A stretch of DNA of 64,000 nucleotides from NCBI GenBank assembly GCA_003152105.1, contig PLZJ01000003.1, positions 6,899-70,898 on the forward strand, read 5' to 3'. Position numbers and translations under genes: made by a program. Shown piece by piece: positions 2,663 to 18,777 of this stretch (positions are counted from its first letter, which is position 1; each line of letters opens with the position of its first letter). The notes under the pieces are model-generated. The model saw only the letters and a program-made list of their open reading frames with translations. It was not told where the DNA came from and searched no databases. This stretch comes from Candidatus Levyibacteriota bacterium (lineage in GTDB: Bacteria > Patescibacteriota > Microgenomatia > Levybacterales > UBA12049).

Positions 2663-5600
2663 TTATTTTATTAAGATGTGAATTTTTACAATATTTATTG
2701 TCATTGCATTATCATTTGATCTACTCATTTGATACTTTCCAGATTTATCCGTATATGTAGCCCATATTGTCTCGGTTCCAAGTTGTGATGGGTTTGTGCT
2801 TGTGCTATCAATTGCAACAAAAGTACACAATATTGATGATCCATTTTTGCTATAGTAGTCATAAAATTCTCCTGTTAACTTACCTTTCTTGTTATAAAAA
2901 GCAATATTTCCTTTTTTTGGAAATGTGCCATCTATAAGCGTAGTGATAGATTTAAAGCAAATACCACTTTTTAAATTTGCAGATGTTGGTGGAACTGCAG
3001 GTATAGTTGTAGTAATTTGAGTACTTGTAAAAATCTTATGAACCGGTGGAGAAATGTGCCAATTTCTATCACACGTTGCTATCCCTCGATTAAATCCATT
3101 CTCAAAAGTTAATGAATTACCAAGTTCAGCTTTTAAAGGATCTGATGACGTGTCATTCCACGCATAGGCAAGAAGTGATACTGCTCCATTAGTACAAAAA
3201 CTTTGAGATTGCGTTGCAATATCTTGTGCACGTGGGTTAATATAATTTTGAGTTGGAATATAAAATGTTTGTGGTGTACCGATGATTGGTTGCATTTTTG
3301 CATCCCACCCGTTCCACTGTAACTCAGATAGTAAATATGACAGCAACGTACTCATTGACCAATCTATACGTGTTGCGTCACCGTTTATATTTCTATAGTT
3401 ACCAGCGTAAATATATAATGAAATATAATTACATGCGTCGGGAGAATAATTTACGATTGCTCTATCAAATTGGCCTCTAGATACCTGCGTTAATGTGGAA
3501 CCAGTATAATAGTCTAAGCTTGCACCATATGCACAAACGGTAGGTAGAAATTTTTGTGTGTGAGCATTATTTTGATCAACTAGATTCTGTACAAGTTCTA
3601 AAGCATCCTTAACATTTCCAACATAATCATCTTGAAGATAATACCCTGCAATTAAAGGATCATTATTTGTTTTATGCAAATAGCTAGTTGTATCGTGAGA
3701 AAGTAGTTGTAGGTCTGAGTTAGAAATCGAACAGTTTTGATCTCGAGTATGAAGCGCAGGTACGAGTGGACAGGATTTATTTAAATATTTGTTAATTAAT
3801 ATAAGTAACGAATTATCCAAATAGGTAATGTGATTTGCTTTATATAATGCATACAACGGAGAATTTTTCGCAATATGTGAACTAACCGTATAAGTTATAC
3901 CAAGCGATGAAGCTTCCTCTAAAGCAGCTTCATTTGAGGCAATTGCATTTTTATTTACATTTGTAATATCATATGCGCCAAACTTATTTTGTAACGACAA
4001 AGATGAGCGATCTGTTGAAGGTAAAGATTTAATAATTACCGCAAAATAATCAACTGGTAAAGTAAGGTTTATTGAACCACTTCCTATTTGTGAAGAAACA
4101 TATGCGCCAAAAGTATTATAAATATATGCCGTAAGCGTGGAGTTATCATTATATGTATAAATGCCTGATTTTTGGGTTAATATCTTATCAGTTCCGATTA
4201 TATAATCTTGATGCAACTCAAGTGGAGTAATTGGATATATTTTGGTAAGAATATTGTTAGTTGTGGAAAATGGAACTGCCGAAGCATAATACAATACACC
4301 GTAATGAAGATAATTTCGAAGTATTTGCGCATGTGTTTGATCTGCATCTTTTGCATTATCAATATACGGTTTTGAGAATCCATTTACCGAATAGCTATCA
4401 ATTTTTTCGTAAGCAATTGGCGAAAACAATTGCGCTTGCGGGGCAACTTTTCCTTGTAAATCATAATTTAAATCTTCGGCGAATCTAGGAATATGCATAT
4501 CTGGCAAATACTCTTCGTTTAATTCCGGTACGTAATTGGCAATAGCTGACTTACTACTTTGCTGGGTAACAAAATCAACTAAATCTTTTTGTGCTAAAGG
4601 ATAATGAAGTGATAAATCTTCTTTTTCGTTTACAATTTGAAATGTTACTGGATTAATGTCAGCAGTATTTAAATCTTGATTTGTGGATTTCGAAGTACTA
4701 CTACCATAATTATATGCTTTAACATACCATGGATGAGGAAAACTTGGATCATTAGTTGGATCAATACCACTGACTAGATTATTACCGAGGGTATTCGCAT
4801 AGCCTTCAAAATCATCAAAGTATATACCATCAATTCCATAATTTTGTAACATGGTTGTTAATACCTGCTTAAGATGTGACGTATAAGATAAATTCGGATC
4901 ATTTAAAAATAAATTAAATGCAAATGGTTTATAAAATTGATATGAAGTACAGTTTGGATAATTAGTATCTATAGATTTAGAAACACGTTGACACACTAAA
5001 TTATCCGTTGAAGGAGATTGTGGTTGGCTTAAGGGATAGGCATAATTTGCCGAACACATGTTGCTATTTTTTAAGGCCGATATTTCACTATTTGCTTGTG
5101 ATATCGAAACCCTTGTATCTGCCAATCCACAACTATAGGTATATGATTTACTCGTCGTAGAAGCACCTAATACAGAACTGTCAGGAAGAGTAGTAGTTTG
5201 ATCATATACCGGAGTAGGAATAGTATGAGGCGGCAAAAATACCTTATTATTAATTACAACTGTTGGAGTAGGCAAAGCAGAGGGCGTTGGCGAAACTGTT
5301 GCAAGAGGTGAAGATAGGCTTGGTGTAGTATTTATTAATGCATCACTGTATGTATTTCCATATGATCCGTCTGGATTATCATCAGAACCAACATTATGTT
5401 CAAAGTAAACGAGCACTTTTACTTTTTTCTTTGTCAGTACCGAAGCACGTTTTATTTGTTTAATAACAGGAATTAATACGTTGTTAATTTGAGAAGTATT
5501 GATAGTAGCTGAGTTTCCAAACGTATACTTTAGATACGTAAGTCCTGGAATTGGATTATCATTTAAATCATATGCTTGCTGAGTAGATGATAAAGACTGA

Positions 5601-6829
5601 GCTAAAATTATATATTTTGCTCCCGTACTATCTAAATAACTTACTAATTTAGGAGTATTGTAAAAATCACTGTATGGCATACTAATTAAATGACTTTGCG
5701 ATGGATCGGAATTGACACTAAACGTATCAAAGACACCACTTCCACCACTTGGTTGACTTGTTTGCGATATGTTGCCAACAAGCGTTGTACCATCTACAGC
5801 AAAATTTGTGTTTAAATCGTTTCTCAAACTATTAATAAAACTAAAATAATCAGTGCCAAGCGTTGGATAGATATACCAAACTTTTGTATAAGATTGACCT
5901 GATTTAATCATAAATTTATCATCTATAAGTCCCCCTTGATTTATGTTTTGTTCATACATTTCCTTTGTATGAACCCTTGATACGTCATCTCCGTTGTATA
6001 GACCTATGCCATTGACATTGTCGCTATAGAAAAAAGTGTCATTGCTACTTGCGGTGTTTATAAAGGTAGTATTTGATACACAGTACTGATGTTGTGGTAC
6101 ACCATTTATGGTAACATCGTTTTGGACAAGCGTAACTGCCGGACTAATAGCTTTTATTGCAGTTAATAAATTGTTAGCAGTATATGTGCCTACACTATAA
6201 CACGGATGCAAATCACCATTTGGGTTACTAAGTGAAACGCCGCCTACAAAGATGTTATTTAGATTCCCATTTTGCGAAGTAGTAATATAGTTTTTATTCA
6301 TGATCCCAACATCGCTGTTGCCTATATTCGTATACGTATCAGTAACCATTATTCGGCTGCTGCTGACTTTTTGAACTACTCTTACCAATTTATAATTCTG
6401 GTCAGCAGAAGTTATCGTATATTTTTGATTTAGTATGTTTGCGATTGTGCTCGTATTTGCCCATAATGGCTCAGAACTTGCTGAAACAGGAAAGGTGTTC
6501 CAATTACCGCTTTTTTGATTAGGATAGGAAAAATATGATGTTAACGCAAATGTGCTATTATTCTGCGATCCATTAACTAAAACTGAAATTTGTCCGTTAG
6601 TAACCTGTAAAGTAAAAGGTACTGACCAGGTGGTTTTTGGACCAATTACTTGACCAGATGCATTTTGGAAAAACGTTTGATACATCAAAACTCCCGAAGG
6701 AGTACCAAGAAGAAGCAGAATGAAAGATATTATAGCGATCTTTAAAAATGTTGATAAACTATTGAACTGGTGTGTAATCCTTATAACTATATTTTTACGT
6801 TTAAGATTTTGCATCAATATTTTAGCCAT
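2663..6829 (-). CDS. Giant secreted multidomain protein (1388 aa). Central GIDGIYFDDFEG glycoside-hydrolase-like module, PT linkers, and a C-terminal domain paralogous to the 14329..16275 protein
   Basis: N-terminal TM/signal segment. C-terminal ~330 aa (GAYDITNV...YLQDD...IDWSMS...PQTFYIP) aligns by eye to residues ~95-420 of the 648-aa protein. Confidence 0.55.
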   Translation of the reverse strand: MAKILMQNLKRKNIVIRITHQFNSLSTFLKIAIISFILLLLGTPSGVLMYQTFFQNASGQVIGPKTTWSVPFTLQVTNGQISVLVNGSQNNSTFALTSYFSYPNQKSGNWNTFPVSASSEPLWANTSTIANILNQKYTITSADQNYKLVRVVQKVSSSRIMVTDTYTNIGNSDVGIMNKNYITTSQNGNLNNIFVGGVSLSNPNGDLHPCYSVGTYTANNLLTAIKAISPAVTLVQNDVTINGVPQHQYCVSNTTFINTASSNDTFFYSDNVNGIGLYNGDDVSRVHTKEMYEQNINQGGLIDDKFMIKSGQSYTKVWYIYPTLGTDYFSFINSLRNDLNTNFAVDGTTLVGNISQTSQPSGGSGVFDTFSVNSDPSQSHLISMPYSDFYNTPKLVSYLDSTGAKYIILAQSLSSTQQAYDLNDNPIPGLTYLKYTFGNSATINTSQINNVLIPVIKQIKRASVLTKKKVKVLVYFEHNVGSDDNPDGSYGNTYSDALINTTPSLSSPLATVSPTPSALPTPTVVINNKVFLPPHTIPTPVYDQTTTLPDSSVLGASTTSKSYTYSCGLADTRVSISQANSEISALKNSNMCSANYAYPLSQPQSPSTDNLVCQRVSKSIDTNYPNCTSYQFYKPFAFNLFLNDPNLSYTSHLKQVLTTMLQNYGIDGIYFDDFEGYANTLGNNLVSGIDPTNDPSFPHPWYVKAYNYGSSTSKSTNQDLNTADINPVTFQIVNEKEDLSLHYPLAQKDLVDFVTQQSSKSAIANYVPELNEEYLPDMHIPRFAEDLNYDLQGKVAPQAQLFSPIAYEKIDSYSVNGFSKPYIDNAKDADQTHAQILRNYLHYGVLYYASAVPFSTTNNILTKIYPITPLELHQDYIIGTDKILTQKSGIYTYNDNSTLTAYIYNTFGAYVSSQIGSGSINLTLPVDYFAVIIKSLPSTDRSSLSLQNKFGAYDITNVNKNAIASNEAALEEASSLGITYTVSSHIAKNSPLYALYKANHITYLDNSLLILINKYLNKSCPLVPALHTRDQNCSISNSDLQLLSHDTTSYLHKTNNDPLIAGYYLQDDYVGNVKDALELVQNLVDQNNAHTQKFLPTVCAYGASLDYYTGSTLTQVSRGQFDRAIVNYSPDACNYISLYIYAGNYRNINGDATRIDWSMSTLLSYLLSELQWNGWDAKMQPIIGTPQTFYIPTQNYINPRAQDIATQSQSFCTNGAVSLLAYAWNDTSSDPLKAELGNSLTFENGFNRGIATCDRNWHISPPVHKIFTSTQITTTIPAVPPTSANLKSGICFKSITTLIDGTFPKKGNIAFYNKKGKLTGEFYDYYSKNGSSILCTFVAIDSTSTNPSQLGTETIWATYTDKSGKYQMSRSNDNAMTINIVKIHILIK

Positions 6830-6919: not shown

Positions 6920-6948
6920 TTGACTTGTCAGTACATTATCAGTACAAT
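6920..6948 (+). promoter_or_regulatory. Sigma70-like promoter (TTGACT-17-TACAAT) with two CAGTACA direct repeats 11 bp apart; candidate autoregulatory operator of the TA module
   Basis: Read directly upstream of ATG 6955. The -10 box is only 6 nt from the start codon. Confidence 0.45.
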
Positions 6949-6954
6949 ATTACT

Positions 6955-7197
6955 ATGTTAATTCAAAAGATATACAGAAACGGCAATTCTCTCGCAGTTA
7001 CAATTCCTAAACAATACTTGGAAGATCTCTCCTTAATAGAGGGTTCACAAGTTGTCGTTGAAAAGAAAGGTAATGGCATTCTTCTCACAACTAAAAAACA
7101 AACATTAGCACCTGATGTTGATGGTAAGTTCATGAAAATGGTTGATAGCTTCATCGATAAACATGAGGATGTACTTCAAAAACTCGCAAATAAGTGA
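6955..7197 (+). CDS. AbrB/MazE (SpoVT-AbrB fold) family antitoxin
   Basis: MLIQKIYRNGNSLAVTIPKQYLEDL matches the swapped-hairpin N-terminus of AbrB/MazE antitoxins. The ORF-track TTG start at 6925 was replaced by ATG 6955. Confidence 0.7.
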   Translation: MLIQKIYRNGNSLAVTIPKQYLEDLSLIEGSQVVVEKKGNGILLTTKKQTLAPDVDGKFMKMVDSFIDKHEDVLQKLANK

Positions 7198-7592
7198 ATA
7201 AAAAACACCATTATATAACCCCCAGTCAAGTGCTTGCAATTCATGATCAAGTGATAGAAAGATTTGGAGGATCAACAGGTCTTCGAGATTTAAGCCTACT
7301 TATATCTTCTGTACTTAGACCTCAAGCTAGTTTCGACGGTAATGATTTATATCCAACTCTATTTGAAAAAGCCGCGGCGTTGCTTCAATCACTTCTTAAA
7401 AATCACCCGTTTGTTGATGGAAATAAAAGAACATCGTTAACTTCGACTGGTATTTTTCTACAACTTAATGGATGGGAAATTGAAAATAGTCATGGTGAGG
7501 AAGTAGATTTTGCTATTAGAGTAGATAATGAGAACTTAACTTTGGAGCAAATTTGTTTGTGGTTAAAACAGCATTCTAAAGAACAAAATTAA
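7194..7592 (+). CDS. doc: Doc (death-on-curing) Fic-family toxin
   Basis: Fic/Doc motif HPFVDGNKRTS. The GTG start overlaps the antitoxin stop (GTGA), indicating translational coupling. Confidence 0.8.
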   Translation: MNKKHHYITPSQVLAIHDQVIERFGGSTGLRDLSLLISSVLRPQASFDGNDLYPTLFEKAAALLQSLLKNHPFVDGNKRTSLTSTGIFLQLNGWEIENSHGEEVDFAIRVDNENLTLEQICLWLKQHSKEQN

Positions 7593-7616
7593 TTTATCCT
7601 TAAGCATAGGACTTTG

Positions 7617-7690
7617 TGGACGATTAGGGATTCGGACCCCAGACCTCTTCAGTGTAAATGAAGCGCTCTAACCAGCTGAGCTAATCGTCC
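7617..7690 (-). tRNA. tRNA-Val (anticodon TAC)
   Basis: Reverse complement folds as a cloverleaf: GGACGAT acceptor, GCTCAGCTGGTTAGAGC D-arm, anticodon loop TTTACAC, T-loop GGTCCGAATCC. Confidence 0.85.
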
Positions 7691-7818
7691 AATTCACTCT
7701 CCGTGAGTTTTCATATTATACAAAAATAATTACCTTAGTCACAAGATGTTGAATAAATCACTATCTTGCCACGAAGTAAGCACTTAAAATCTTTGTATTG
7801 TAGTGCTATAATGCTGGC

Positions 7819-8262
7819 ATGAAACTTTTTATATATTCATTATTTACCTTCATGCTTTTTTCGATTTTTGGAGCTTCTGCACATTCTTCATTTGCACAAG
7901 CTACTCCCGTCGAATTTAATTCATTTACGACAAAAGATACGGCAACATATGTTGCATCAACCTTAAATACACAATGCTCAAAACGATTATTAACAGATAT
8001 TTTAAAAAAATATATTGTTACAGATACGATTTATCAAGATACGCTTCATAAGGAAATATACTTCAACGTATTACATCTTAAAGGAAATAGGCAAGATCAA
8101 GTATATGGGTATAAATTTGGGGATGGAAAGCCAAAAGGAATAAGAAATACGCTTTGTGTAGAAATTGCAGCATCAGATTCGTATATGCGTTTGAATTTTG
8201 ATGCAAATAAAATAGTAAAAATATATTTATTTACGAGCAGTACGTTTCCTTTTGGAACATAA
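7819..8262 (+). CDS. Small secreted hypothetical protein
   Basis: N-terminal signal peptide (MKLFIYSLFTFMLFSIFGASAHS). Low GC like the host. Confidence 0.45.
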   Translation: MKLFIYSLFTFMLFSIFGASAHSSFAQATPVEFNSFTTKDTATYVASTLNTQCSKRLLTDILKKYIVTDTIYQDTLHKEIYFNVLHLKGNRQDQVYGYKFGDGKPKGIRNTLCVEIAASDSYMRLNFDANKIVKIYLFTSSTFPFGT

Positions 8263-8289
8263 TAACTCAAATATTTTAGTCCTGTAGTA

Positions 8290-8317
8290 TTGACATACCC
8301 TCTTTTTCTGTTATAAT
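8290..8317 (+). promoter_or_regulatory. Near-consensus sigma70 promoter (TTGACA-16-TATAAT) ahead of the GC-rich cassette; ~190-nt leader follows
   Basis: Read directly. Confidence 0.5.
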
Positions 8318-8543
8318 TTCACCTAACGAATGTGTTAAAGCTAAACATTTGCTGTTTAACGTAAGATACGTTCGAAAAAGCACTTTTACAAGAAAGGAAA
8401 TAACCAACAATCCTTCTAGCGAATAGTTTTTTAGCCTTGGCGAAAGCGTAAAGCGTCTCAGAATTGTGAAATTTAAATGACAATATCACGTCCTGGAGCA
8501 TTTTGCGCTTTTGTTAAAGCACCTATTCTACTATGGAGGCAGT

Positions 8544-8984
8544 ATGACCCCTTTTCGAGTCGTTCGTTCGTCGTATAGAATGACCGTTTCGTACGAAGAT
8601 GGCCCCGGTTCACTTACAAATCCTGAGCAAGTACTCAGCGCAAAACACGTCGTTTTGACTGGTCAATGCAAAGATCCGAGTCTTTTGACGGCTGAAGCAC
8701 TTAGCTTCCATATCAGTCGTTTTCCTACATGTGATTACGAAGATTTTGGACCGGCAGTTGGAGATCATGATTATTCATACGAACTCCAAAAGAAAGAGGG
8801 AGACAAGTGGGTGTATGTCACTTTTTTGAATCCTTATGGTCGTAAGATCACATGTGAACATCAGAGTGAATACGATGAAGACCCAGAACTGTGGCCAGAG
8901 GAAGAAGACGAAGACGAAGAACCAAGGCTACCTCCCGCAACTGTTTTTAAACGATTTTCGACACACTTCAATCAAAGGAGATAA
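8544..8984 (+). CDS. Hypothetical protein with acidic C-terminus, in the GC-rich cassette
   Basis: ORF with strong RBS (GGAGG-4nt-ATG at 8544; the ORF-track start is 8511). GC is markedly higher than surrounding DNA. No recognisable motif. Confidence 0.45.
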   Translation: MTPFRVVRSSYRMTVSYEDGPGSLTNPEQVLSAKHVVLTGQCKDPSLLTAEALSFHISRFPTCDYEDFGPAVGDHDYSYELQKKEGDKWVYVTFLNPYGRKITCEHQSEYDEDPELWPEEEDEDEEPRLPPATVFKRFSTHFNQRR

Positions 8985-8986
8985 CA

Positions 8987-9421
8987 ATGATTGATACTAA
9001 AAATCCGTTCACCAATCTTGACGAAGTCAGAACCGCACGTGAGTACTGTATCACAATCAGAGATCACGCCGACGCGTTCATCGCTCACAGGCACTTTGAT
9101 CGGTACAGAAACGGGACAATTCCGAGCATTTCAACTCGTCAGTTCAAACTCGTTGAATCGACGTGCATCGAAGCAGAAGATATTCCAGCTCACCCAACAC
9201 TTCCTTACGAGGACGTGCCGGAACTATTCCTTCAACCTACATTTATGTGTGTTGTTTACAGCTCACATAAAGTCGCACACTTTCCGGACAAAGACGTGCA
9301 TCTGAGGATGATTCACCTTTGTGCAGAATGGGAGCAAGAGTATCACCTCTATATCGTCGACGATCAGGTCGTTATGACGCTTTTGAGTCGCAATCAAGGA
9401 CGGTTAAATCCCATTAGCTAG
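8987..9421 (+). CDS. Hypothetical protein, in the GC-rich cassette
   Basis: AGGAG RBS 8 nt upstream. Starts 3 nt after the previous stop. GC-rich. No recognisable motif. Confidence 0.45.
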   Translation: MIDTKNPFTNLDEVRTAREYCITIRDHADAFIAHRHFDRYRNGTIPSISTRQFKLVESTCIEAEDIPAHPTLPYEDVPELFLQPTFMCVVYSSHKVAHFPDKDVHLRMIHLCAEWEQEYHLYIVDDQVVMTLLSRNQGRLNPIS

Positions 9422-9513
9422 AGTCGGAATCGACGCGTTGGTTTAGGGTAATAAGCAGAAGGAAATTCATGTAGCTACTTTGTTACATACAACCCCTTCT
9501 CACCCTTCCTTTC

Positions 9514-9567
9514 TTTCCGTCTACTGCTATAAGCAGTACTGATGAGTCCTTTTAGGACGAAACGAGA
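9514..9567 (+). ncRNA. Type III hammerhead self-cleaving ribozyme
   Basis: Read directly: stem III 5' strand ..ccGUC, with cleavage expected after C9521; stem I hairpin UACUGC-UAUAA-GCAGUA; core CUGAUGA; stem II GUCC-UUUUA-GGAC; GAAAC with A15.1 pairing to U16.1. All invariant core nucleotides are present in canonical order. Confidence 0.7.
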
Positions 9568-9852
9568 TACTTCGATTATATATAGTGCCCCATATGGGAC
9601 GATGTTCGAACCTATTTGTGCCTAAACATCGATCAGGGTGAAAAGACAAGCTTGCTTTCTGCAATTAATCACTTCAAAAAGAAGGAAATTGAATGAAAAT
9701 TTATTTTCTTCCTTCCAATAATGAGGTTGGAACAATTTCTTCGACCATTCTCCAAACCAGATCTTTAGGAAACTCACTGTATCATATGTGACAAAAGCTT
9801 CTCCTTACAAACGGTTGAATTAAGAGCATCTAAGAATAACTAAGAATAATTA

Positions 9853-9881
9853 TTGACAAACTTATATTTGAGCACTATAAT
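9853..9881 (+). promoter_or_regulatory. Perfect consensus sigma70 promoter (TTGACA-17-TATAAT), 8 nt upstream of ATG 9889
   Basis: Read directly. Preceded by the direct repeat CTAAGAATAA x2 at 9829-9848. Confidence 0.6.
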
Positions 9882-9888
9882 AAATAAA

Positions 9889-10260
9889 ATGACTAAAGAA
9901 AGTATAGATCCAAACAAAGTTTACACCACTCAAGAAGCAGCAGATGTCCTTGGTGTTTCTGAACAAATACTAGTTATGCAATTAAGGAATGGTAAAATTA
10001 CTGGACAATATATTGGAAAAGGGTGGAAAATATTGGGTCAGAACATCATTGACTTTCTAAAAAAACCTCAAGGATTAATTGAGCGGTTAGCTGAAACTAT
10101 GCTGGAAGAAGAAAGTAAGTCAGACTCGTCAAATAAACAAAGCCCTGTAGAAAATGCTGTTCAAAGATTACTCAATGGTAGCTCAACATCTCCAAGATAT
10201 ACTCCTGAACAAATTGATTTAGCACTAAAACAATACAAAGAAAAGAAAGGAATTACCTAA
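9889..10260 (+). CDS. Helix-turn-helix DNA-binding protein (excisionase/MerR-like HTH) with a low-complexity C-terminus
   Basis: YTTQEAADVLGVSEQILVMQLRNGKI is a typical excisionase-family HTH. The ORF-track TTG start at 9853 lies inside the promoter and was replaced by ATG 9889. Confidence 0.55.
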   Translation: MTKESIDPNKVYTTQEAADVLGVSEQILVMQLRNGKITGQYIGKGWKILGQNIIDFLKKPQGLIERLAETMLEEESKSDSSNKQSPVENAVQRLLNGSSTSPRYTPEQIDLALKQYKEKKGIT

Positions 10261-10262
10261 TT

Positions 10263-10694
10263 ATGCCAAGTCTTAAAATGGTCAAGCACCAGGCATGGGC
10301 TTTTTATAGTAAATGGAAAAAACAAAAAACTTTCTCTCCAGCTTTCAACTCTGATGTTAGAGTATCACTTAAAGGTTGGTACCACATAACTGGAGCAAGA
10401 GGATTCAAACAGAGAAGTGCAGGCGATGTATATCGAAGACTTATGATTTTACATCATGCAAAAACTATAATTGAAACAGCAACCACGATTCAAAACGTTC
10501 AAGTCAAAGGGAAAATCACTTATTATGCCTTAGACTCTGTTACGCAAGTTTCAGAAAATGACAAAACTGAGTGGAGAAAATTAAGAGTAATTATTATTGA
10601 CGATATTAAAGGAAACAAAGTTTTTTATTCAGTTATGGATAAAAAACCAAGTATAAGACCTAAAATACAAAAAAAGAGGATGCCTCACCCTTAG
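10263..10694 (+). CDS. Hypothetical basic protein, coupled to the HTH gene
   Basis: Starts 3 nt after the HTH gene's stop. No recognisable motif. Confidence 0.4.
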   Translation: MPSLKMVKHQAWAFYSKWKKQKTFSPAFNSDVRVSLKGWYHITGARGFKQRSAGDVYRRLMILHHAKTIIETATTIQNVQVKGKITYYALDSVTQVSENDKTEWRKLRVIIIDDIKGNKVFYSVMDKKPSIRPKIQKKRMPHP

Positions 10695-10878: not shown

Positions 10879-10931
10879 ATGTGTAACATTATACCTAATA
10901 TATTCTCTATTTTAAACCTTACATCTATATG

Positions 10932-11015
10932 TACCGTGGAGAGGAGTCGAACCTCCATGCCTTTTTGGGGCACTGGTACCTGAAACCAGCGCGTCTGCCA
11001 TTTCGCCACCACGGT
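10932..11015 (-). tRNA. tRNA-Leu (anticodon CAG), type II
   Basis: Reverse complement ACCGTGG-TG-GCG-AAATGGCAGA-CGC...anticodon loop TTCAGGT...variable arm TGCCCCAAAAAGGCA...TTCGACT T-loop. Confidence 0.8.
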
Positions 11016-11111
11016 TTATGTAAAATGGTGCTATGTATTATAACGTAGCTTCGATTGTAACAAAGTCATATTGTATTGACAAGGAACCTTAAATATGTAA
11101 ATATTATATGA

Positions 11112-11699
11112 ATGAGGAAGTTTATTCTGCTCGCAACTTTCTTAATCGTAACTCCAATATTTCTAATTTTTAGCATCATATTTGTTGCTTTGATTCATTT
11201 TGAGCATATTCAGTCTCAATTCTTAACAAGCGTAGCTCAGCCGCAAACAGTTGCGTATGCAGCTTTACCTACAACCCAAAATAGCCTTTCTGATCAAATA
11301 ATAGAACAAAATGCCAGAGCTGAGATGTTAACGCAGTTTTTTGAGCAATATAATTCACCCCTTGCGCCGTACGCACAAACAATCGTAGATGAAGCTGATG
11401 CATATAATCTTGATTTTAGACTTCTTCCCGCAATAGCTATGCAAGAATCTGATGGTTGTTTAAAAGCACCACCTAACTCTGATAATTGCTGGGGATTTGG
11501 TATCTATGGCCATACGGTAACTCGCTTTGATTCATACCCAAGTGCTATTCAGGCAGTAAGTAAGGCTTTAGCCGAAAAATATGCCTCAAAAGGTCTTAAA
11601 ACTCCTGAGCAAATAATGAGTATTTATGACCCTCCAAGCTCGGCAAATGGAGGAAGATGGGCCGATAGCGTAAGCTATTTCATGAATAAACTTCAATAG
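11112..11699 (+). CDS. Membrane-anchored peptidoglycan hydrolase of the lysozyme-like superfamily (GH73 glucosaminidase-like / SLT-like)
   Basis: N-terminal TM. AIAMQESDG catalytic-Glu motif and NCWGFGIY motif. Paralog of the 11884..12444 gene. Confidence 0.5.
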   Translation: MRKFILLATFLIVTPIFLIFSIIFVALIHFEHIQSQFLTSVAQPQTVAYAALPTTQNSLSDQIIEQNARAEMLTQFFEQYNSPLAPYAQTIVDEADAYNLDFRLLPAIAMQESDGCLKAPPNSDNCWGFGIYGHTVTRFDSYPSAIQAVSKALAEKYASKGLKTPEQIMSIYDPPSSANGGRWADSVSYFMNKLQ

Positions 11700-11712
11700 A
11701 ACACTCAATGTC

Positions 11713-11741
11713 TTGACAAACCTATAGCTTTCTGCTATACT
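11713..11741 (+). promoter_or_regulatory. Sigma70-like promoter TTGACA-17-TATACT
   Basis: Read directly. Confidence 0.4.
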
Positions 11742-11752
11742 CTTTTTCAGAT

Positions 11753-11795
11753 CCTAAGGTAAGCCTTCCACACCGCTTACGTTAGGATTTTTTTA
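11753..11795 (+). terminator. 12-bp stem hairpin (CCTAAGGTAAGC...GCTTACGTTAGG) followed by a T-run; intrinsic terminator or attenuator between the two hydrolase paralogs
   Basis: Read directly. One G-G mismatch in the stem. Followed by ATTTTTTTA. Confidence 0.45.
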
Positions 11796-11883
11796 TGGAA
11801 TAATGCCACCATGATGTTTTGGCAACAATCTGGTTACAAAATTATCAATTTACAAAGGCAATTACTCTTATTCCAATTATCCT

Positions 11884-12444
11884 ATGAAAAACCTATTACG
11901 AATTACATTTGTGCTTATCGTACTTGTAATACTATTTACGCCTAAAGAGGCTTATGCGTCTGATGAGACGATTAACTCTACAGAGGCTATAAGTACTGTG
12001 CTTCCTCAAATAACAGCTCAAAATGCCCAAATTAACGCCCTACAGGGGTATTTAACAGCACAGAATTCACCACTTGCACCATATGCTAAATCTATGGTTG
12101 AAAATGCAAACGAGAATAACATTGACTGGAGACTCGTTGCAGCTATCTCAGGCGTAGAATCTAGCTTTGGTCTTGATTTACCTACCAACTCATATAACTG
12201 TTGGGGTTTTGGTATCTATGCTGATAATGTAAGATATTTTGCATCATATTCAGATGGGATTGAAACAGTGTCCAAATCTCTTCGACAGGATTATCTTGGG
12301 CAAAACCAAGCAACAAACGTGTATCTTATTGGAAGTAAATACGCTGCAGATCCGAACTGGGCTTCGCGAGTAGAGACGTATATGGATGCTATTTCTTCAT
12401 ATCAAGCAAATACACAAATAAATCAGCTTCCGCTTTCTCTCTAA
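11884..12444 (+). CDS. Membrane-anchored peptidoglycan hydrolase, GH73 glucosaminidase-like (second paralog)
   Basis: AISGVESSFG and NCWGFGIY motifs, plus YAADPNWASRVETYM resembling the GH73 YATDPxYA motif. Confidence 0.5.
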   Translation: MKNLLRITFVLIVLVILFTPKEAYASDETINSTEAISTVLPQITAQNAQINALQGYLTAQNSPLAPYAKSMVENANENNIDWRLVAAISGVESSFGLDLPTNSYNCWGFGIYADNVRYFASYSDGIETVSKSLRQDYLGQNQATNVYLIGSKYAADPNWASRVETYMDAISSYQANTQINQLPLSL

Positions 12445-12476
12445 ATTCGCTATAATATACGAAAGGCATTACGCTT

Positions 12477-12560
12477 GCCGGGATGGCGAAATGGTAGACG
12501 CGCATGGTTTAGGACCATGTGCCCTTAAAAGGCATGGAGGTTCGAGCCCTCTTCCCGGCA
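12477..12560 (+). tRNA. tRNA-Leu (anticodon TAG), type II
   Basis: GCCGGGA acceptor, GCG-AAATGGTAGA-CGC D-arm, anticodon loop TTTAGGA, long variable arm, GGTTCGAGCCC T-arm. Confidence 0.85.
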
Positions 12561-12595
12561 CATCTTGTGATATAATAGGCATCCAAACAAGCACT

Positions 12596-13423
12596 ATGGC
12601 AACAACATTACAAAAAGCAATAGACGGAACAATTACCTTAACAATCGCAATTCCTGCTGCAGATATTGAAAAGGCAAAAAAAGAAGTACTTGAATCATTT
12701 TCTAAAGAAGCGCAAGTAGCTGGATTTCGAAAAGGAAAAGCTCCTAAAAAACTAGTTGAAGATAAGGTGAATGAAGATAAGCTACGTGAAGAAATTCTTC
12801 GAACTACACTTCCCAAAGCATATGTTGCTGCGGTTACAGAACAAAAGTTGCAACCAGTTCTTAATCCAAAAATTCATATTAATAAAATAGAGGAGGGGAA
12901 AGACTGGACTTTTACTGCAGTTACTTGTGAAGCGCCAAAACTTAATCTTGGAGATTATAAAAAAAGAGTACAAGATGTAACGGCAAAAAGCAAAATTATT
13001 GTCCCTGGAAAAGAGCAAACTTCACCAAGTCTTGATGATATTGTTTCAGCACTTTTGTCAGGAATTGATGGCGCAATTCCTTCGGTTATTTTAGATCAAG
13101 AAGTTGATAGACTGCTCGCACAAACCCTTGATGAAATTAAAACGCTTGGTATATCGCTTGAGCAATATCTTTCTTCAACAAACAGAACAGTTGAGGGAAT
13201 TAGGCAAGAGTATAAAAAAAGAGCTGAAAATGATGTCAAATTAGAATTTGCGCTTCAACAAATAGCTGAAGATGCAAAAATTGTTATTGAAGAAAAAGAA
13301 ATAGATGAGGCAATACAAAAAGCCAAAGACAAGAAAGAACAAGAACAAATGCAGGCCAATCGCTATTTATTAACGAGTATTTTACGACAACAAAAAACCT
13401 TTGATTATTTAAAAAACCTATAG
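12596..13423 (+). CDS. tig: Trigger-factor-like protein (short, ~276 aa; N-terminal ribosome-binding domain signature)
   Basis: GFRKGKAPKKLV matches the trigger factor GFRxGxxP ribosome-docking signature. The start was moved to ATG 12596 to clear tRNA-Leu. Confidence 0.5.
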   Translation: MATTLQKAIDGTITLTIAIPAADIEKAKKEVLESFSKEAQVAGFRKGKAPKKLVEDKVNEDKLREEILRTTLPKAYVAAVTEQKLQPVLNPKIHINKIEEGKDWTFTAVTCEAPKLNLGDYKKRVQDVTAKSKIIVPGKEQTSPSLDDIVSALLSGIDGAIPSVILDQEVDRLLAQTLDEIKTLGISLEQYLSSTNRTVEGIRQEYKKRAENDVKLEFALQQIAEDAKIVIEEKEIDEAIQKAKDKKEQEQMQANRYLLTSILRQQKTFDYLKNL

Positions 13424-13456
13424 TATTCACTACTATATTGATTTTTCTCATTCTTT

Positions 13457-14149
13457 GTGGTACGCTGCCCACAGAATATGGCTATAACATCTAAATTAAC
13501 AAAGCGAAATTTCTCTCTCCCAGACCCATTTGAATCTTTTGAAACACTAAGAGAAAGTACAACAGGTGCTGCAAAAGGCACTGCTTCAGTCATAAAACAA
13601 ACAAGCATAGAGGTTGTTCAAGAAGCAACAACCCAAGCAAGCGGTGTATTTGGAGAAGCGCTGGGACAATTATTTGGTGATTTAGCACCAAATGAAGAAT
13701 TTAGTTTACCTTCAGCTCGAAAAGCACAAAGTGAAAAACAAGAATCAGCTTCAAAACCTAGAAAAGAAGCAGGAATTGACTATTTTTCTGAAATTATTCA
13801 TGGTGAAACAAGAATTCATAGAACACAGTCCCAAGAATTACAAACAAAAATTTCTGAAATTATGAAGGAAGTAACCTTACTTATGAAAGCATCAAGCGAA
13901 CTTCAGATGCAGTTTAAAGAGGTTTCAGTTGAAAAAGTTACCAAATCACCAGGTAAATATCATGAATCTTTCTTTGAATGGCTTCTTATTACCGTACGAA
14001 CCATTCGAATACGAGTAGATGATAGTGCAAATTGGTTAGCAGTGATGGGGAACAAAAAGGAGAAAAAATCTTACTGGAATATGTTTAAAAAACATGGCAC
14101 TACTTTTGGAATGTCAGGCGAACGATCTGTTTCAAATCAGGTTGCATAA
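13457..14149 (+). CDS. Hypothetical protein
   Basis: ORF only. The start may be the internal Met at 13478. Confidence 0.35.
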   Translation: MVRCPQNMAITSKLTKRNFSLPDPFESFETLRESTTGAAKGTASVIKQTSIEVVQEATTQASGVFGEALGQLFGDLAPNEEFSLPSARKAQSEKQESASKPRKEAGIDYFSEIIHGETRIHRTQSQELQTKISEIMKEVTLLMKASSELQMQFKEVSVEKVTKSPGKYHESFFEWLLITVRTIRIRVDDSANWLAVMGNKKEKKSYWNMFKKHGTTFGMSGERSVSNQVA

Positions 14150-14243
14150 CTACTGCTTTTTATAAAACTTCTCTTAATTGATTGCATAAACCTATTTTGC
14201 TACAATATGTTACGTCCTAATAACTTTTTACATAGTTATTTTT

Positions 14244-14317
14244 GGGCTTATAGCTCAGCTGGTTAGAGCGTTGCATTGACATTGCAAAGGTCAGAGGTTC
14301 GAGTCCTCTTAGGCCCA
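14244..14317 (+). tRNA. tRNA-Val (anticodon GAC)
   Basis: GGGCTTA acceptor, GCTCAGCTGGTTAGAGC D-arm, anticodon loop TTGACAT, GGTTCGAGTCC T-arm. Confidence 0.85.
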
Positions 14318-14328
14318 CACGACTTTTA

Positions 14329-16275
14329 CTATCTAATATTTCCGCTTTCACTTGCGGAACAACCAGTAGCTACTCCATAATTTAAATACGTTTTTGTATA
14401 GCCAGCACTTCCTTTATAGTAATAATTTACGTCATCAACAAATGGAGCTGAAATATAATTTAATCCATTCACAAGAGGCAGTGGAAAACTTGCATGCCCA
14501 TTGATAACTTGAGCGCTAATACTTGCTACATTTGTATGAACTATTCCTTGGTTATCTTGAATAGTAATATGTATATGACCATTCGGTGCAATAGGACCTC
14601 CATAATTTTGAACGCGTACGGTAGCTAGAGGACATGCGTCAGTTCCTTTTGGACCAGCTGATGCATTAATTGCTGTTGAAGTTGGATCTTTTGCTATAGT
14701 TAACACTATTGGCAAGCTACTGGTTGTTTGTCTTGCCTGTGTTGTATCAATATACTCAGCAATTACTGATTCACTTCCCGAAATAAGAGGATCAAAAGTT
14801 AGTAAGTCTGGGATTGCCGACGTACAAAGTAATGTTTGTGTTTGTCCCATCTTGAGTGTTCGAAAACCAAGAATTGAAGCATTATCTTTAAATACAATAT
14901 CTCCTGCTGGATGATTACCATATTGATCAGTTACTGAAGCTTCATAACAAGTTCCGGCATTGAGCGAAGTTATAAGAGGTGTACTTGAAGTAATTTTAAC
15001 GCTCACAAGTTTACTTCCTTGTTTTACCCAATCAGAATTACACTTACTTGTTCCATCAAGAAATCCCGCCTGCATACTATTTGCATTACCAAGTTCAATT
15101 TTACCTACTTCAGTCGACGAATCATCAAATGCGTAGGGAAGTATACCAACTGCTCCGCTCCCACAAAAACTTTGAATTTGTGTAGAAATATCAATCGCCC
15201 GTGGTAAAATGCTGTTTGCGATAGTTAAATCAGGATAATAAAATGTCTGAGGAATACCTATTAATGGTTCCATATTTTGATCCCATCCAAGAAGCGATAG
15301 TTGCGCTTTAAAATCGGGCAGTAATTGCTTCATTGACCAATCTATTTTCGATGCATCACCATTTACCCATGAATAAACTCCATATGGATAAAAGCTCACA
15401 TAATCACACGCATCTGGAGAAAAATTACTAACTGATAAAGCGAGATTGTGTCGACTATAACGTGTAAATACACCGTTTGCGTTATAATAATCGAGCCCTG
15501 CTCCAAACGCACAAAGAGTGGATCTATGTAAGACGCTTGTTCTATTTGCATTTTGTATTATTTGATGAATTAAAGGCAGTACATTTTTTGTGTTTCCAAT
15601 ATTATCATCTTGTAGATAAAAACCTAAAATTGCTTGATCATTTTCTATTTTTGGGGAGGTAACATACTGCTGAACATCTCTTAGTAATAGTTGCAAATTG
15701 TCACCAGTTATTTGACATGTGGGATCGTGTCTCACTGAAATTGGTTTATTAGTTTTTGCACTTGTTGGTATGGGACAGGCAATTTGTAAATAGTAATTTA
15801 TTTTTCCAAGCAACGTACCGTCTACATATTTCATATGGTTACGTTTTAAAACTGCATACATTGCACTTTCGGAAGACACATAGGAACGAATGCTATAAGA
15901 AATTCCTAAGGTATGGGCAAGCTGTACTTCTTTTTCATTAGAACGCTCCGTATTTTTGTAAAATACACCGATATCATATGCGCCAATTTTATTTGACAAA
16001 CTATAAGAATGAGATTGAGGTGAGGTTGTATCAGCAAAATTATGGATCGTTTGAGTATTGGAAACTATAAGTGGGGTAGCAAGAATTAGCAAAAACAAAG
16101 ATACTATGCCTATTTTTGCTGTTTTATCAATCTTATCAAGTTCAGTTTGTAATATACTTATTACATTTTTAAAACTATTATTGTTGTGATTTTTACTTAA
16201 AATATTAGGCATATAATGCCTATTAAGTATGAGGAAAAAAATGAAGTATGTCAATAAAAATGAGATGAAAAACAA
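14329..16275 (-). CDS. Secreted carbohydrate-active-like protein. Its N-terminal domain is paralogous to the C-terminus of the 1388-aa protein; its C-terminal Ig-like domains are shared with the GH5-like protein
   Basis: Signal-anchor at N-terminus. Blocks FYLQDDNIGN, KIDWSMKQL and PQTFYYP align to the 2663..6829 protein. C-terminal ~200 aa aligns to the C-terminus of 16285..18777. Confidence 0.55.
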   Translation of the reverse strand: MFFISFLLTYFIFFLILNRHYMPNILSKNHNNNSFKNVISILQTELDKIDKTAKIGIVSLFLLILATPLIVSNTQTIHNFADTTSPQSHSYSLSNKIGAYDIGVFYKNTERSNEKEVQLAHTLGISYSIRSYVSSESAMYAVLKRNHMKYVDGTLLGKINYYLQIACPIPTSAKTNKPISVRHDPTCQITGDNLQLLLRDVQQYVTSPKIENDQAILGFYLQDDNIGNTKNVLPLIHQIIQNANRTSVLHRSTLCAFGAGLDYYNANGVFTRYSRHNLALSVSNFSPDACDYVSFYPYGVYSWVNGDASKIDWSMKQLLPDFKAQLSLLGWDQNMEPLIGIPQTFYYPDLTIANSILPRAIDISTQIQSFCGSGAVGILPYAFDDSSTEVGKIELGNANSMQAGFLDGTSKCNSDWVKQGSKLVSVKITSSTPLITSLNAGTCYEASVTDQYGNHPAGDIVFKDNASILGFRTLKMGQTQTLLCTSAIPDLLTFDPLISGSESVIAEYIDTTQARQTTSSLPIVLTIAKDPTSTAINASAGPKGTDACPLATVRVQNYGGPIAPNGHIHITIQDNQGIVHTNVASISAQVINGHASFPLPLVNGLNYISAPFVDDVNYYYKGSAGYTKTYLNYGVATGCSASESGNIR

Positions 16276-16284
16276 GAATATTTA

Positions 16285-18777
16285 TTACGGAGTAGAACAT
16301 CCAAGAGGTGCTCCGTATTTTACATACGTTTCAGTTTGACCTGCACTACTCGTGTAGTAAAAATTCACATCATCAGTATATGTTGCAGTAATTTTGTTAT
16401 TCCCATTAACAAGTGGTAATGAAAATGTAGATACACCACTAGTGACTACTCCTGTTGCTACTTGAGAATGAAGTACTCCTGCATCATCAAGTATAGAAAT
16501 AGTAACGTGTCCGTTTGCTTTAGCAGGTCCACCAAAATTTTTGACTGTTACTGTTGCAAGAGGACATGTATTAGTACCCCCTGATCCAGCAGATGCTTTA
16601 ATGCTTGTTTGCGATGAGTCTTTTAAGATGGTTAGTACCACAGGTGAAGATGTGCTTGATTGATATGTAGCACTTGTAGGCGTAAATACCGCAGTTACTG
16701 TTTCAGTACCTGAAATAGTTGGATCTACAACTGTTGTGTCGGGAAGGGAAGACGTACACAAATTTGCTGTTTGGGTACTTTGTGTTATGTTTCTTATACC
16801 AAGTGTTTGACTTTTATCTTTAAAGATAATTGTACCAAGTGGTACTGTACCATCTGAGTTGGAAACTGTTGCATCATAACAGGTTGGGTAGTGTAGATTT
16901 AATGTGGTTGAAGAACTAAGATACGAAAGCGTAGTTGATGTCGTTGTAGTACTAACAGGTGCTTCCGATGTAAATGTCACAGGATTAGAAAGTTGTGCAA
17001 GATAATTTTGATCCCCTAAATATAATATTGTTACTTTATGTATTCCTTGTGTAAATAGCTGAGGTGGTATGGTAAATGTTCCATCAGATTGTATTGGAAA
17101 AATAGCCTCACTTGCTCCATTATCTTTTAACTGAATATTTCCTGTTGGAATAGATCCTGTATAAATCAGTTTTCCTAAAAGCGTAACTGGACTTGTCGTT
17201 GTAACCTGGAGTTGCGTTAGCGAAAGCAAAACTTGAGGAGTACTTTTTGCAGCCCAATTGGTAAAGAGAGTAATCACATCATGTCCAGCACCTCCTGGAT
17301 AATTTGCAGGAGCTTGTCCACTTGGAAATTCTGACGCGCATTCAGTAGGATCCCACGTCCAAGCAGTTGCTAAGTTGTGTATATTATTTGTACTAGCATG
17401 GCTAACTATTTGACTTGAACTTACAGAATCTCCAACCCATGGAACAAGTCCTATATTTCTTGTATTTAAGTAAGAGAAAAATACAGAAGCAATTGCAGGT
17501 CCAGTATCACATTGTGTTCCTGAGTAATCCCATTCTGTAGCAACCACAGGCGCAATTTTACTTAAATCTCCAAATTCAGTATTCCATATACAATTGCTCG
17601 TATTTGTTCCTGTGCACTTTGCAAGTTCATTTTTATCAACAACTTTAGTTGCCACATTGTTAATGGTTTTTGTTTTATTTAAATGGTCTTGAAACGTATA
17701 TGGATGCACTGCATATGCAATACCATATCCTGGATTTTCAATTGGTTCTGAGAGACAATATTGACAAGCAATACCAGCTGAGGAGGTTCCATTGCCAATA
17801 ATCCCATCAAACGTAACTGCTTTTTTCGGTCCATCAACAATCACAAGATTCCTTGCGCCAACAGAACGAATACCATTTAAAAGTGTTTGTTCATCACTTT
17901 GCCAAGTTGACCATTCACTTGCAGTTGGAGAAATTAACGGATCATTTGGAACACCATGCGTAAATCCAATATGTGGCTCATTATATAGTTCAAATACCAC
18001 TTTCTGGTCAGTTGCAAAAAGTGGGGCAAGATATTGCCATGCAGAAAGGGTAGTTGCAGTTGGACTTCCTGTATAAATATCAGTAAATGTTGAGGTAGCA
18101 GTCGAATGAATGTCGCATTTATTATGATCATCCATCCACATTGCAAGTATTGGCACAATATGTGCTGATTCTAAAAGCGATACATCACGCTCTAATTGAT
18201 ACGTATAATATTGTTGTTCTGTAAGATTCGTAGGCAGAGGTGGCGTAAATCCAGGATCAATTACACTTACAGCTGTGGTGTCATTTAGCGCACTCTCGTC
18301 AATTTGGAGTCTTATCGTATTTATGTGCCATGTGTTACGCAAAATTTGAAGCTCGTTGTTGCCATCACTATTATATAAATGAGCCTCGGCTTGTAACGGT
18401 TCCCCGAATGGATTTGATGCGCTTCCATATTTACAATCTGGCGTATTTCTTGAAGCTATCATATTTAAACCATGCATTACAAATGGTTGTTCATTAAAAA
18501 ACACGATATTATTTCTTGCTTGAATATAGCCTGCTACTTGCCAATTCGCAGTAAATGTAGGAAGAAGGGGAGCTTGTGCATTTTGCTCAAACTCTTGCCA
18601 TGTTAATACCCCAAAAGGTGTTGCAATAAGAAAAAAGAGTATGGTAAAAAGAGAATATCGTATTGCTTTTGGTAACTTCAGGAATGATTTTCTTGCTTTT
18701 TTTAGCAGTTCTGCTTTAGAGATTGTACTCACTTCATGTGCCATATCTATAAAATAGTATGTGGGAAAAATAATCAC
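16285..18777 (-). CDS. Secreted GH5-family (cellulase-like) glycoside hydrolase with C-terminal Ig-like domains
   Basis: ELYNEPH (GH5 acid/base NEP motif) and WNTEFGD (GH5 nucleophile TEFG motif). N-terminal TM. C-terminal domains paralogous to 14329..16275. Confidence 0.6.
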   Translation of the reverse strand: MIIFPTYYFIDMAHEVSTISKAELLKKARKSFLKLPKAIRYSLFTILFFLIATPFGVLTWQEFEQNAQAPLLPTFTANWQVAGYIQARNNIVFFNEQPFVMHGLNMIASRNTPDCKYGSASNPFGEPLQAEAHLYNSDGNNELQILRNTWHINTIRLQIDESALNDTTAVSVIDPGFTPPLPTNLTEQQYYTYQLERDVSLLESAHIVPILAMWMDDHNKCDIHSTATSTFTDIYTGSPTATTLSAWQYLAPLFATDQKVVFELYNEPHIGFTHGVPNDPLISPTASEWSTWQSDEQTLLNGIRSVGARNLVIVDGPKKAVTFDGIIGNGTSSAGIACQYCLSEPIENPGYGIAYAVHPYTFQDHLNKTKTINNVATKVVDKNELAKCTGTNTSNCIWNTEFGDLSKIAPVVATEWDYSGTQCDTGPAIASVFFSYLNTRNIGLVPWVGDSVSSSQIVSHASTNNIHNLATAWTWDPTECASEFPSGQAPANYPGGAGHDVITLFTNWAAKSTPQVLLSLTQLQVTTTSPVTLLGKLIYTGSIPTGNIQLKDNGASEAIFPIQSDGTFTIPPQLFTQGIHKVTILYLGDQNYLAQLSNPVTFTSEAPVSTTTTSTTLSYLSSSTTLNLHYPTCYDATVSNSDGTVPLGTIIFKDKSQTLGIRNITQSTQTANLCTSSLPDTTVVDPTISGTETVTAVFTPTSATYQSSTSSPVVLTILKDSSQTSIKASAGSGGTNTCPLATVTVKNFGGPAKANGHVTISILDDAGVLHSQVATGVVTSGVSTFSLPLVNGNNKITATYTDDVNFYYTSSAGQTETYVKYGAPLGCSTP

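Follow-up and report, generated by a model that had tools for sequence, protein, structure and literature searches.

Which activity resides in a domain that a bacterium of the candidate phyla radiation (CPR) has placed in two very different large proteins, and how did the domain come to stand in both? The question is raised by a 64,000-nucleotide stretch of contig PLZJ01000003.1 (positions 6,899 to 70,898, forward strand) from a Candidatus Levyibacteriota assembly (GCA_003152105.1), hereafter the window, whose own positions are used throughout. The two proteins are p1388 (2663–6829, minus strand), a membrane-anchored or secreted protein of 1,388 aa both as an open reading frame (ORF) and in the public gene call, and p648 (14329–16275, minus strand), whose longest ORF gives 648 aa and whose public gene call gives 627 aa from an ATG at 16212; a database relative of p648, P0001, is identical to it from Met22 on. 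An earlier interpretation of the letters alone (the sequence-only reading) had listed these ORFs, all of which we found in place, and had noticed that the blocks YLQDD, IDWSM and PQTF are common to p1388 and p648, which we confirmed. We refer to the ~320-aa domain that carries these blocks as TIM-X. On its predicted structure, TIM-X has a TIM-barrel, glycosidase-like fold that is remote from every solved family, and the model together with its conserved residues makes it a probable unclassified glycosidase family.

The TIM-X domain and its predicted fold

TIM-X occupies residues 943–1262 of p1388 (copy 1; 3044–4003, minus strand), supported by BLASTP and by a match to the family hidden Markov model (HMM) at E=4e-101, and residues 88–420 of p648 (copy 2; 15016–16014, minus strand), supported by AlphaFold2, Foldseek and a conservation table. 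The blocks YLQDD, IDWSM and PQTFY(I/Y)P begin at residues 1064, 1155 and 1186 of p1388 and at residues 220, 311 and 342 of p648. The sequence-only reading could put no family name to the domain, and our searches bore this out: neither window copy returned a Pfam, NCBIfam or PDB sequence match, no Pfam model lay over the domain in any of 113 aligned members, and the family profile had no PDB sequence match. A word-indexed protein search returned no relatives of the TIM-X domain or of whole p1388, which likewise lacks any Pfam or NCBIfam match. The family surfaced only in an exhaustive HMM search, with the two window copies as query against 1.84 billion representatives of 50%-identity clusters, which yielded 231 relatives at E≤1e-3, of which 204 passed E≤1e-10 and 71 passed E≤1e-30. 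Most members stand alone, in proteins of about 330–370 aa that end in the domain after a short N-terminal extension, and named sources of members include metagenome-assembled genomes (MAGs) of Chloroflexota and a Parcubacteria genome; some relatives carry the domain fused to dockerin, LamG, surface immunoglobulin (Ig), F5/8 type C or PG_binding_1 domains.

Predicted by AlphaFold2 from the 113-sequence alignment, the TIM-X domain of p648 folds with high confidence (pLDDT 93.2, pTM 0.92) into the alternating strands and helices of a (beta/alpha)8 barrel, for which the deep alignment was needed, as evidenced by a pLDDT of only 46 with a two-sequence alignment. Foldseek matched the model to 174 PDB chains at E≤1e-3, and every one of the best 50 is a glycoside hydrolase or a related hydrolase of sugar polymers. 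Among the listed matches, at 9–14% identity and template modelling (TM) scores of 0.43–0.58, are BT_0435, a beta-mannosidase of glycoside hydrolase (GH) family 164, GH5 mannanases, GH2 glucuronidases, Cwp19, GH99 and GH18. Among the viral structures of BFVD the matches were again barrels of these kinds, phage GH5, spherulin-4 and capsule-depolymerase proteins being examples. Structure prediction, which the sequence-only reading had proposed as a check for a TIM-barrel glycosidase fold, thus came out in favor of that fold, with glycosidases as the nearest solved structures.

The best Foldseek E-value (1.3e-7) belongs to BT_0435 (PDB 4h41, deposited as 'putative alpha-L-fucosidase'), which we take to be a DUF4434 protein and which is, like TIM-X, a single-domain barrel and of similar size (321 aa); identity is 13%, however, the TM-score is 0.49 and TIM-X members show no match to its Pfam model, and because BT_0435 is itself uncharacterised it permits no functional transfer. 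Cwp19 of Clostridioides difficile (PDB 5oq2; E=4e-6), presumably a peptidoglycan hydrolase of the GHL10 type, is a surface-displayed TIM-barrel glycan hydrolase with wall-binding modules, a likeness echoed by one TIM-X relative that carries PG_binding_1, although identity is 10% and PF02638 matches no TIM-X member. Clan GH-A hydrolases (GH5 4qp0 and 3ziz, the GH164 enzyme Bs164 6t5o, and GH2) share the predicted fold with TIM-X (E of 1e-6 to 1e-5, TMq up to 0.58) as well as conserved polar residues at the ends of beta4, beta6 and beta8, and are likewise secreted and modular with Ig or carbohydrate-binding module (CBM) appendages, but TIM-X is only ~10% identical to them and has no profile match. 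Alignment of the TIM-X profile to the neighboring GH5 domain of p830 (the 830-aa protein described below) with hhalign found no relation, and a sequence match to a GH42 enzyme (5xb7) is non-significant (E=0.52) and counts as a lead only.

Conserved residues, genomic settings and candidate substrate

Conservation across the family marks out a set of acidic and aromatic residues in the predicted barrel (domain numbering plus 87 gives the p648 residue number). D136 and D137 (98% and 96% conserved; D223-D224 in p648 and D1067-D1068 in p1388, YLQDD block) close strand beta4 (residues 129–136), N197 and D204 (96% and 90%) precede beta6, Y209 and Y211 (96% and 98%; Y296/Y298 in p648) lie on beta6 itself (residues 205–211), and D225 and W226 (94% and 91%; D312-W313 and D1156-W1157, IDWSM block) fall in the loop that follows it. 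At the end of beta8 stands W296, a Trp in 91% of the family and a Phe (F383) in p648, while the site of the clan GH-A nucleophile Glu is taken by Q256 (Q343 and Q1187, PQTF block), which is conserved at 80% and is otherwise mostly Met or Asp. Cys is near-invariant at C100, C168, C203, C284 and C325 and reaches 72% at C76; conserved Cys at these six positions suggest disulfides and hence an extracytoplasmic location.

Compared with clan GH-A, TIM-X is predicted to have the fold (Foldseek E~1e-6) without the signature. In place of the Asn-Glu acid/base (NEP) at beta4 stands D136-D137, with Glu in 1 of 112 sequences, and in place of the nucleophile Glu at beta7 the segment reads PLIGxPQ(A/T)F, with its conserved Gln preceded by a variable position. 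The active site is therefore likely not of the GH5/GH26 type, as judged from the model and the alignment, and its catalytic residues are candidates. Substrate-assisted hexosaminidases carry adjacent catalytic carboxylates on beta4 (Asp-Asp in GH84, Asp-Glu in GH20, DxxDxDxE in GH18), and clan GH-D enzymes use a beta4 Asp plus an Asp of the beta6 region. TIM-X resembles the former in the adjacent Asp-Asp ending beta4, the missing beta7 nucleophile, the Tyr on beta6 and the Trp on beta8; GH18 and hexosaminidase barrels are among its weaker fold matches in PDB and BFVD, and some of its relatives lie beside DegT or UDP-GlcNAc 2-epimerase genes. There is no sequence similarity between these enzymes and TIM-X, however, and the likeness is a lead rather than a tested membership.

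In the mechanism that we propose, the active site would lie at the C-terminal ends of the barrel strands and would comprise D223/D224 at the end of beta4, Tyr296/Tyr298 on beta6, Asp312-Trp313 in the beta6 loop and the Trp at the end of beta8, with no carboxylate on beta7. Catalysis would not pass through the Glu/Glu pair of GH5 and GH26; it might employ the Asp-Asp pair in the substrate-assisted manner of N-acetylhexosaminidases (GH84/GH20 style) or, alternatively, the beta4 Asp together with the beta6-loop Asp, as in clan GH-D.

The genomic settings of the relatives bear on the substrate. Five of the 12 contexts of non-window members that we examined are polysaccharide-biosynthesis loci, and the members in them are distant relatives that share at most 36% identity with one another. 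One (L086) holds DegT, Bac_transf, a TylF-type methyltransferase and two glycosyltransferase family 4 (GT4) genes; a second, on a 608-kb contig (L090), runs GT4, Wzy_C, methyltransferase, GT4, the TIM-X member and DegT, and as these two members are only 36% identical, the two contexts count as independent observations. A further locus reads Bac_transf, UDP-GlcNAc 2-epimerase, GT4, heparinase II/III, the member, GT1, Asn synthase, GT4 and Wzy_C, another (L092) has two adjacent members downstream of a GT4-GT2 fusion, and the last (L094) contains DUF4012 and UDP-glucose dehydrogenase. One more context places a member beside a LamG/beta-helix/dockerin protein. Exopolysaccharide (EPS) loci often encode their own trimming hydrolase, such as PslG (GH39), PelA (GH166), Sph3 (GH135) and Ega3 (GH114). 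The TIM-X relatives follow the same genomic logic, a secreted (beta/alpha)8 barrel among GT4, Wzy and sugar-modifying genes, and spherulin-4-type barrels are among the viral fold matches of TIM-X; it differs in having no sequence membership in those families, and the CPR copies stand not in a biosynthesis locus but next to GH5- and GH26-type enzymes. By analogy, these settings point to bacterial surface glycans, possibly with amino sugars, as the ancestral substrate.

We consider it reasonably probable that the TIM-X proteins are modular surface glycosidases of a CPR bacterium, products of old duplication and fusion in which TIM-X is an extracytoplasmic glycoside hydrolase; we infer activity, catalytic residues, substrate and surface display alike from sequence and model. 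A Levybacteria-like CPR bacterium would, on this account, possess several membrane-anchored or secreted modular enzymes built within its lineage. Their Ig-like tails and leader would hold them at the cell surface, where p648 would act beside a co-transcribed GH5 enzyme, and the substrate would probably be a polysaccharide of the bacterial surface or an exopolysaccharide, with amino sugars as possible constituents. Several observations weigh against this account. The nearest partners in the window are enzymes of plant-glycan type (GH5 and GH26/CBM4_9) and the sample name suggests wood; six of the 12 contexts are uninformative; and GH84 and GH20 are not among the best 50 of the 174 PDB fold matches. 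The window copies themselves depart from the consensus, p648 with Phe for the beta8 Trp and p1388 with Asn where 90% of the family has Asp204. The fold matches are remote at the TM-scores and identities given above, so that fold alone does not fix the activity, and TIM-X, unclassified in Pfam, NCBIfam and PDB sequences, may already bear a CAZy number.

Its most durable competitor, which we judge unlikely on balance, holds that TIM-X is a plant-cell-wall enzyme, for example mannan- or glucan-active, that works with the GH5 and GH26/CBM4_9 proteins. It remains a live rival because p648 follows the GH5 gene by 9–72 bp on the same strand, and it draws further on TM-scores that are best to GH5 beta-mannanases (4qp0, TMq 0.58) and to the GH164 beta-mannosidase, on a sample named WOOD18, and on dockerins in the relatives P0004 and P0022 and beside a third member, in the LamG/beta-helix context. 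What tells against it is the absence of the clan GH-A signature, with Asp-Asp for Asn-Glu at beta4 and Gln for Glu at beta7, the lack of profile similarity to the adjacent GH5 domain, and the position of several distant relatives in bacterial polysaccharide-synthesis loci rather than plant-glycan utilisation loci. The plant-glycan role that goes with the company given to the shared domain in the sequence-only reading, beside a mannanase, is overstated for it, as distant relatives sit in bacterial polysaccharide loci and the Glu pair that serves catalysis in mannanase/cellulase-type barrels is missing.

We think it improbable that TIM-X is no glycosidase at all, whether a carbohydrate-binding pseudoenzyme or another TIM-barrel enzyme such as an esterase, lyase or deacetylase. 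The missing canonical Glu pair would suit such a protein, TIM barrels host many chemistries, and BFVD lists weaker matches to AP endonuclease, luciferase-like and deacetylase barrels; against this stand near-invariant acidic and aromatic residues at the strand C-termini, typical of active glycosidases, and the uniform composition of the best 50 PDB matches.

Extending the surface-glycosidase account, we suggest as a speculative and rather doubtful proposal that TIM-X founds a new GH family, with Asp-Asp on beta4 and no beta7 nucleophile, which free-living bacteria would use to trim their own Wzy-dependent amino-sugar EPS and which CPR bacteria would have captured and duplicated to cut the capsule or EPS of host or neighboring bacteria. 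TIM-X is distinctive as a rare, unannotated and confidently foldable family whose conserved residues are unlike those of the barrels it most resembles and which is repeatedly linked to polysaccharide loci. Its characterisation would likely bring a further glycoside-hydrolase family and would assign a function to genes that lie within many polysaccharide-biosynthesis loci. The ~1.1-Mb genome holds three TIM-X copies, one of them fused into the 1,388-aa protein, and their place beside leader-sharing GH5 and GH26 enzymes points to a sizeable CPR investment in surface-displayed polysaccharide-cutting enzymes, which bears on how such organisms feed or attach.

Modules, duplication and fusion

Three kinds of module would account for the architecture of these proteins: a leader on four of them, C-terminal Ig domains of Big_3_5-like type in p1388, p648 and p830, and TIM-X in p1388, p648 and a same-genome paralog, P0003. 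In order, p1388 consists of the leader (residues 1–58; 6656–6829, minus strand), an N-terminal orphan region, the TIM-X barrel and one Ig-like domain (residues 1283–1380; 2690–2983, minus strand), the last recognised by BLASTP to p830 and p648 and by a sub-threshold Big_3_5 match (E=0.032). In p648 the leader and TIM-X precede two Ig-like domains (residues 435–527 and 528–640; 14356–14973, minus strand), identified through their p830 match, the first also through Big_3_5 at E=9e-5, below the gathering score. Immediately upstream of p648, and on its strand, lies p830 (16285–18777), whose longest ORF gives 830 aa and whose public gene call gives 819 aa from 18744, and which is made up of the leader, a GH5 barrel (residues 130–448; 17434–18390, minus strand) and three Ig-like domains (residues 520–603, 625–717 and 718–828; 16294–17220, minus strand), the last two paralogous to the p648 tail. 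The GH5-like character that the sequence-only reading assigned to p830 is borne out by PF00150 (E=3e-17, 63.5 bits against a cut-off of 23.5) and by the acid/base motif LYNEP (residues 264–268, with NEP at 266–268) and the beta7 Glu nucleophile motif ATEWD (residues 413–417, with TEW at 414–416). Against Big_3_5 (PF16640, gathering score 35.5 bits), whole p830 scores 69 bits in three stretches and its first Ig domain alone 43.5 bits, above threshold; the shared tail domains alone reach 15–29 bits (E of 0.03 to 1e-6), below threshold, with two of them giving no match, and we therefore name the tail domains Big_3_5-like.

The fourth protein (2–2497, plus strand) joins a leader, a GH26 domain and two CBM4_9 modules, with Pro-Thr (PT) linkers between them. 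Here too the sequence-only reading of a GH26-like, CBM-bearing protein held, with PF02156 at 34.1 bits (cut-off 20.2), a match that spans only profile positions 91–239, PF02018 at 87.6 bits in two stretches, and, numbered from the ATG at 68, the acid/base motif WEMNG at about residues 190–194 and the GEF nucleophile motif in IGEFAS (residues 316–321). The first ATG, at 68, falls inside the hydrophobic leader, and upstream of it the frame stays open as far as window position 2; the real start of the gene thus lies upstream of the window, whose edge cuts the ORF.

The leader of all four CAZyme-like (carbohydrate-active enzyme-like) proteins comprises a basic stretch, ~15 hydrophobic residues, [A/G]TP, 10–13 further residues and Q-N/H-(F)-A, as found by motif scan at 6659–6745, 16033–16113 and 18571–18651 (minus strand) and at 2–139 (plus strand). 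That of p1388 has GTP after the hydrophobic helix and ends in QNA, and that of the GH26 protein ends in QHAS. Among 238 window ORFs of at least 60 aa the pattern occurs in these four only, a count that is descriptive and not a test, as the pattern was written after the four sequences had been viewed; the N-termini of p1388 and p830 also align independently (BLASTP, E=3e-5). The leader may be a lineage-specific secretion or anchoring signal. Leaders ending in QNFA or QNA were also seen in P0003 and in the relative P0004.

In p1388, the ~880-aa orphan region (residues 59–942; 4004–6655, minus strand), which contains a PT-rich linker at about residues 505–545, has no detectable family: it gave no Pfam match even at E≤10, no PDB match and no relatives in the word-indexed search or a JGI metagenome scan, showed no internal repeat and had no match among 150 TIM-X family proteins, and hhalign found no relation between the middle region of p1388 and the TIM-X profile. 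A motif within it, GIDGIYFDDFEG (residues 665–676; 4802–4837, minus strand), aligns weakly to the Endo H (GH18) catalytic motif LDGVDFDDE at a non-significant E~0.4, a lead on which the region around it may be a second glycosidase-like barrel.

How the modules came to be shared was judged from pairwise BLASTP with composition-based statistics. Residues 943–1378 of p1388 align to residues 90–527 of p648 at 38% identity over 449 columns (E=8e-88). The sequence-only reading was thus right that the C-terminus of p1388 is paralogous to the N-terminal part of p648, and its extent of ~330 aa is to be corrected to ~445 aa, which takes in the ~320-aa catalytic-like barrel and one Ig-like domain. Its second claim, that the C-terminal ~200 aa of p648 are paralogous to the C-terminus of p830, stands as made: residues 438–640 of p648 align to residues 628–828 of p830 at 48% identity over 203 aa (E=2e-57). 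The Ig-like domain of p1388 (residues 1285–1378) also aligns to residues 627–717 of p830 at 33% identity (E=7e-7). Within the family, the two window TIM-X copies are each other's best match, at 44% identity and 266 bits, with no other member scoring above 186 bits, and the third copy, the stand-alone P0003 (363 aa, 33–36% identical), lies ~60 kb away on the same 1.14-Mb contig. At the nucleotide level the paralogous parts are 65–68% identical over 142–315 bp, with nothing longer detected, which implies that the duplications and fusions are old rather than signs of active shuffling. As these sequences indicate, the TIM-X copies go back to a duplication that is old and internal to the lineage, after which they were fused to different partners. 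Modular duplication of this kind is ordinary for carbohydrate-active enzymes, and what is of value in the locus is the TIM-X family.

Side-by-side copies occur elsewhere too. On the unrelated metagenome contig L092 (1–5660), P0044 (349 aa) adjoins P0033 (909 aa) just downstream of the GT4-GT2 fusion, so that local duplication of TIM-X is not peculiar to the CPR genome.

The description of these genes as a recombining cluster was not supported in either of its terms, since the nucleotide identities are too low and the matching stretches too short for active recombination, and since 7.5 kb of unrelated genes set p1388 and the GH26 gene apart from the p648/p830 pair. An actively recombining cassette system, in which recent shuffling or gene conversion diversifies surface enzymes, is accordingly very improbable: neighboring genes do share modules in different combinations, and tRNA, small helix-turn-helix (HTH) and toxin-antitoxin genes do lie between them, but the identities are just 65–68% in nucleotides and 38–48% in protein, and no flanking repeats were seen at the module borders, where no search aimed at repeats was made. 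We rejected recent recombination on the nucleotide identity. The likelihood that the resemblance of the three proteins is a compositional or low-complexity artefact, as their S/T/N-rich sequence and PT linkers might suggest, is negligible in view of the composition-adjusted E-values of 8e-88 and 2e-57, the location of the likeness in conserved Cys, Asp and Trp blocks rather than in PT- or N/S/T-rich sequence, and the 204 independent TIM-X relatives at E≤1e-10.

Host and neighboring genes

GyrB is 74–79% identical to that of Candidatus Levyibacteriota/Patescibacteria MAGs and at most 60% identical to all else, a few of the best matches being labelled 'uncultured Gammaproteobacteria' in the record title. 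This affinity, rather than a 16S or ribosomal-protein phylogeny, supports the CPR host that the sequence-only reading had entertained, and the 1.14-Mb metagenomic scaffold from which the window comes (WOOD18-1_SAMN07125042 scaffold_5), a DUF5660 protein, a trigger factor without a peptidyl-prolyl isomerase (PPIase) match and type IV pilus genes are consistent with it. Elsewhere the window carries housekeeping genes and genes for type IV pili. To call a glycan-degrading repertoire notable in such a host was an overstatement, as glycosidases of Microgenomates are already published: in a survey of >2000 CPR genomes, Microgenomates had the widest glycoside-hydrolase repertoire in the radiation (PMC5581439), and CAZymes in such a genome are thus not surprising in themselves.

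The genes that separate p1388 from p648 comprise a MazE/Fic pair, five tRNA genes, small HTH ORFs, two glucosaminidase-like paralogs, the trigger factor and the DUF5660 protein. The first, at 6925–7592 (plus strand), is a toxin-antitoxin pair adjoining the p1388 gene in which a 90-aa antitoxin of MazE/AbrB type and a 132-aa protein of the Fic/Doc family overlap, the Pfam labels being those of the public contig gene table. From 7616 to 14318, tRNAs Val-tac, Leu-gag, Leu-cag, Leu-tag and Val-gac are scattered across the 7.5 kb between the CAZyme genes, together with small ORFs without family, one of which has a faint HTH_17 (excisionase-like) match, and the stretch may be the remnant of an integrated element. 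At 11112–11699 and 11884–12444 (plus strand) two small paralogs stand in tandem, each with a hydrophobic helix at its N-terminus and a domain resembling glucosaminidase (PF01832, E=2.8e-7 in the second); they are likely peptidoglycan hydrolases, and would represent another local duplication of a secreted glycan-active gene. The tRNA-Leu(tag) gene (12477–12561) overlaps the first 70 nt of the trigger-factor ORF (12491–13423), whose Trigger_N match begins at residue 36, so that translation probably begins at the Met near 12596; the protein gave N- and C-terminal domain matches and no PPIase domain match. Just beyond the GH5 gene, a 667-aa protein (19414–21417, minus strand) with a weak, sub-threshold von Willebrand factor A match is flanked by neighbors without family at 18841–19407 and 21609–22322, and all of these may be further surface proteins.

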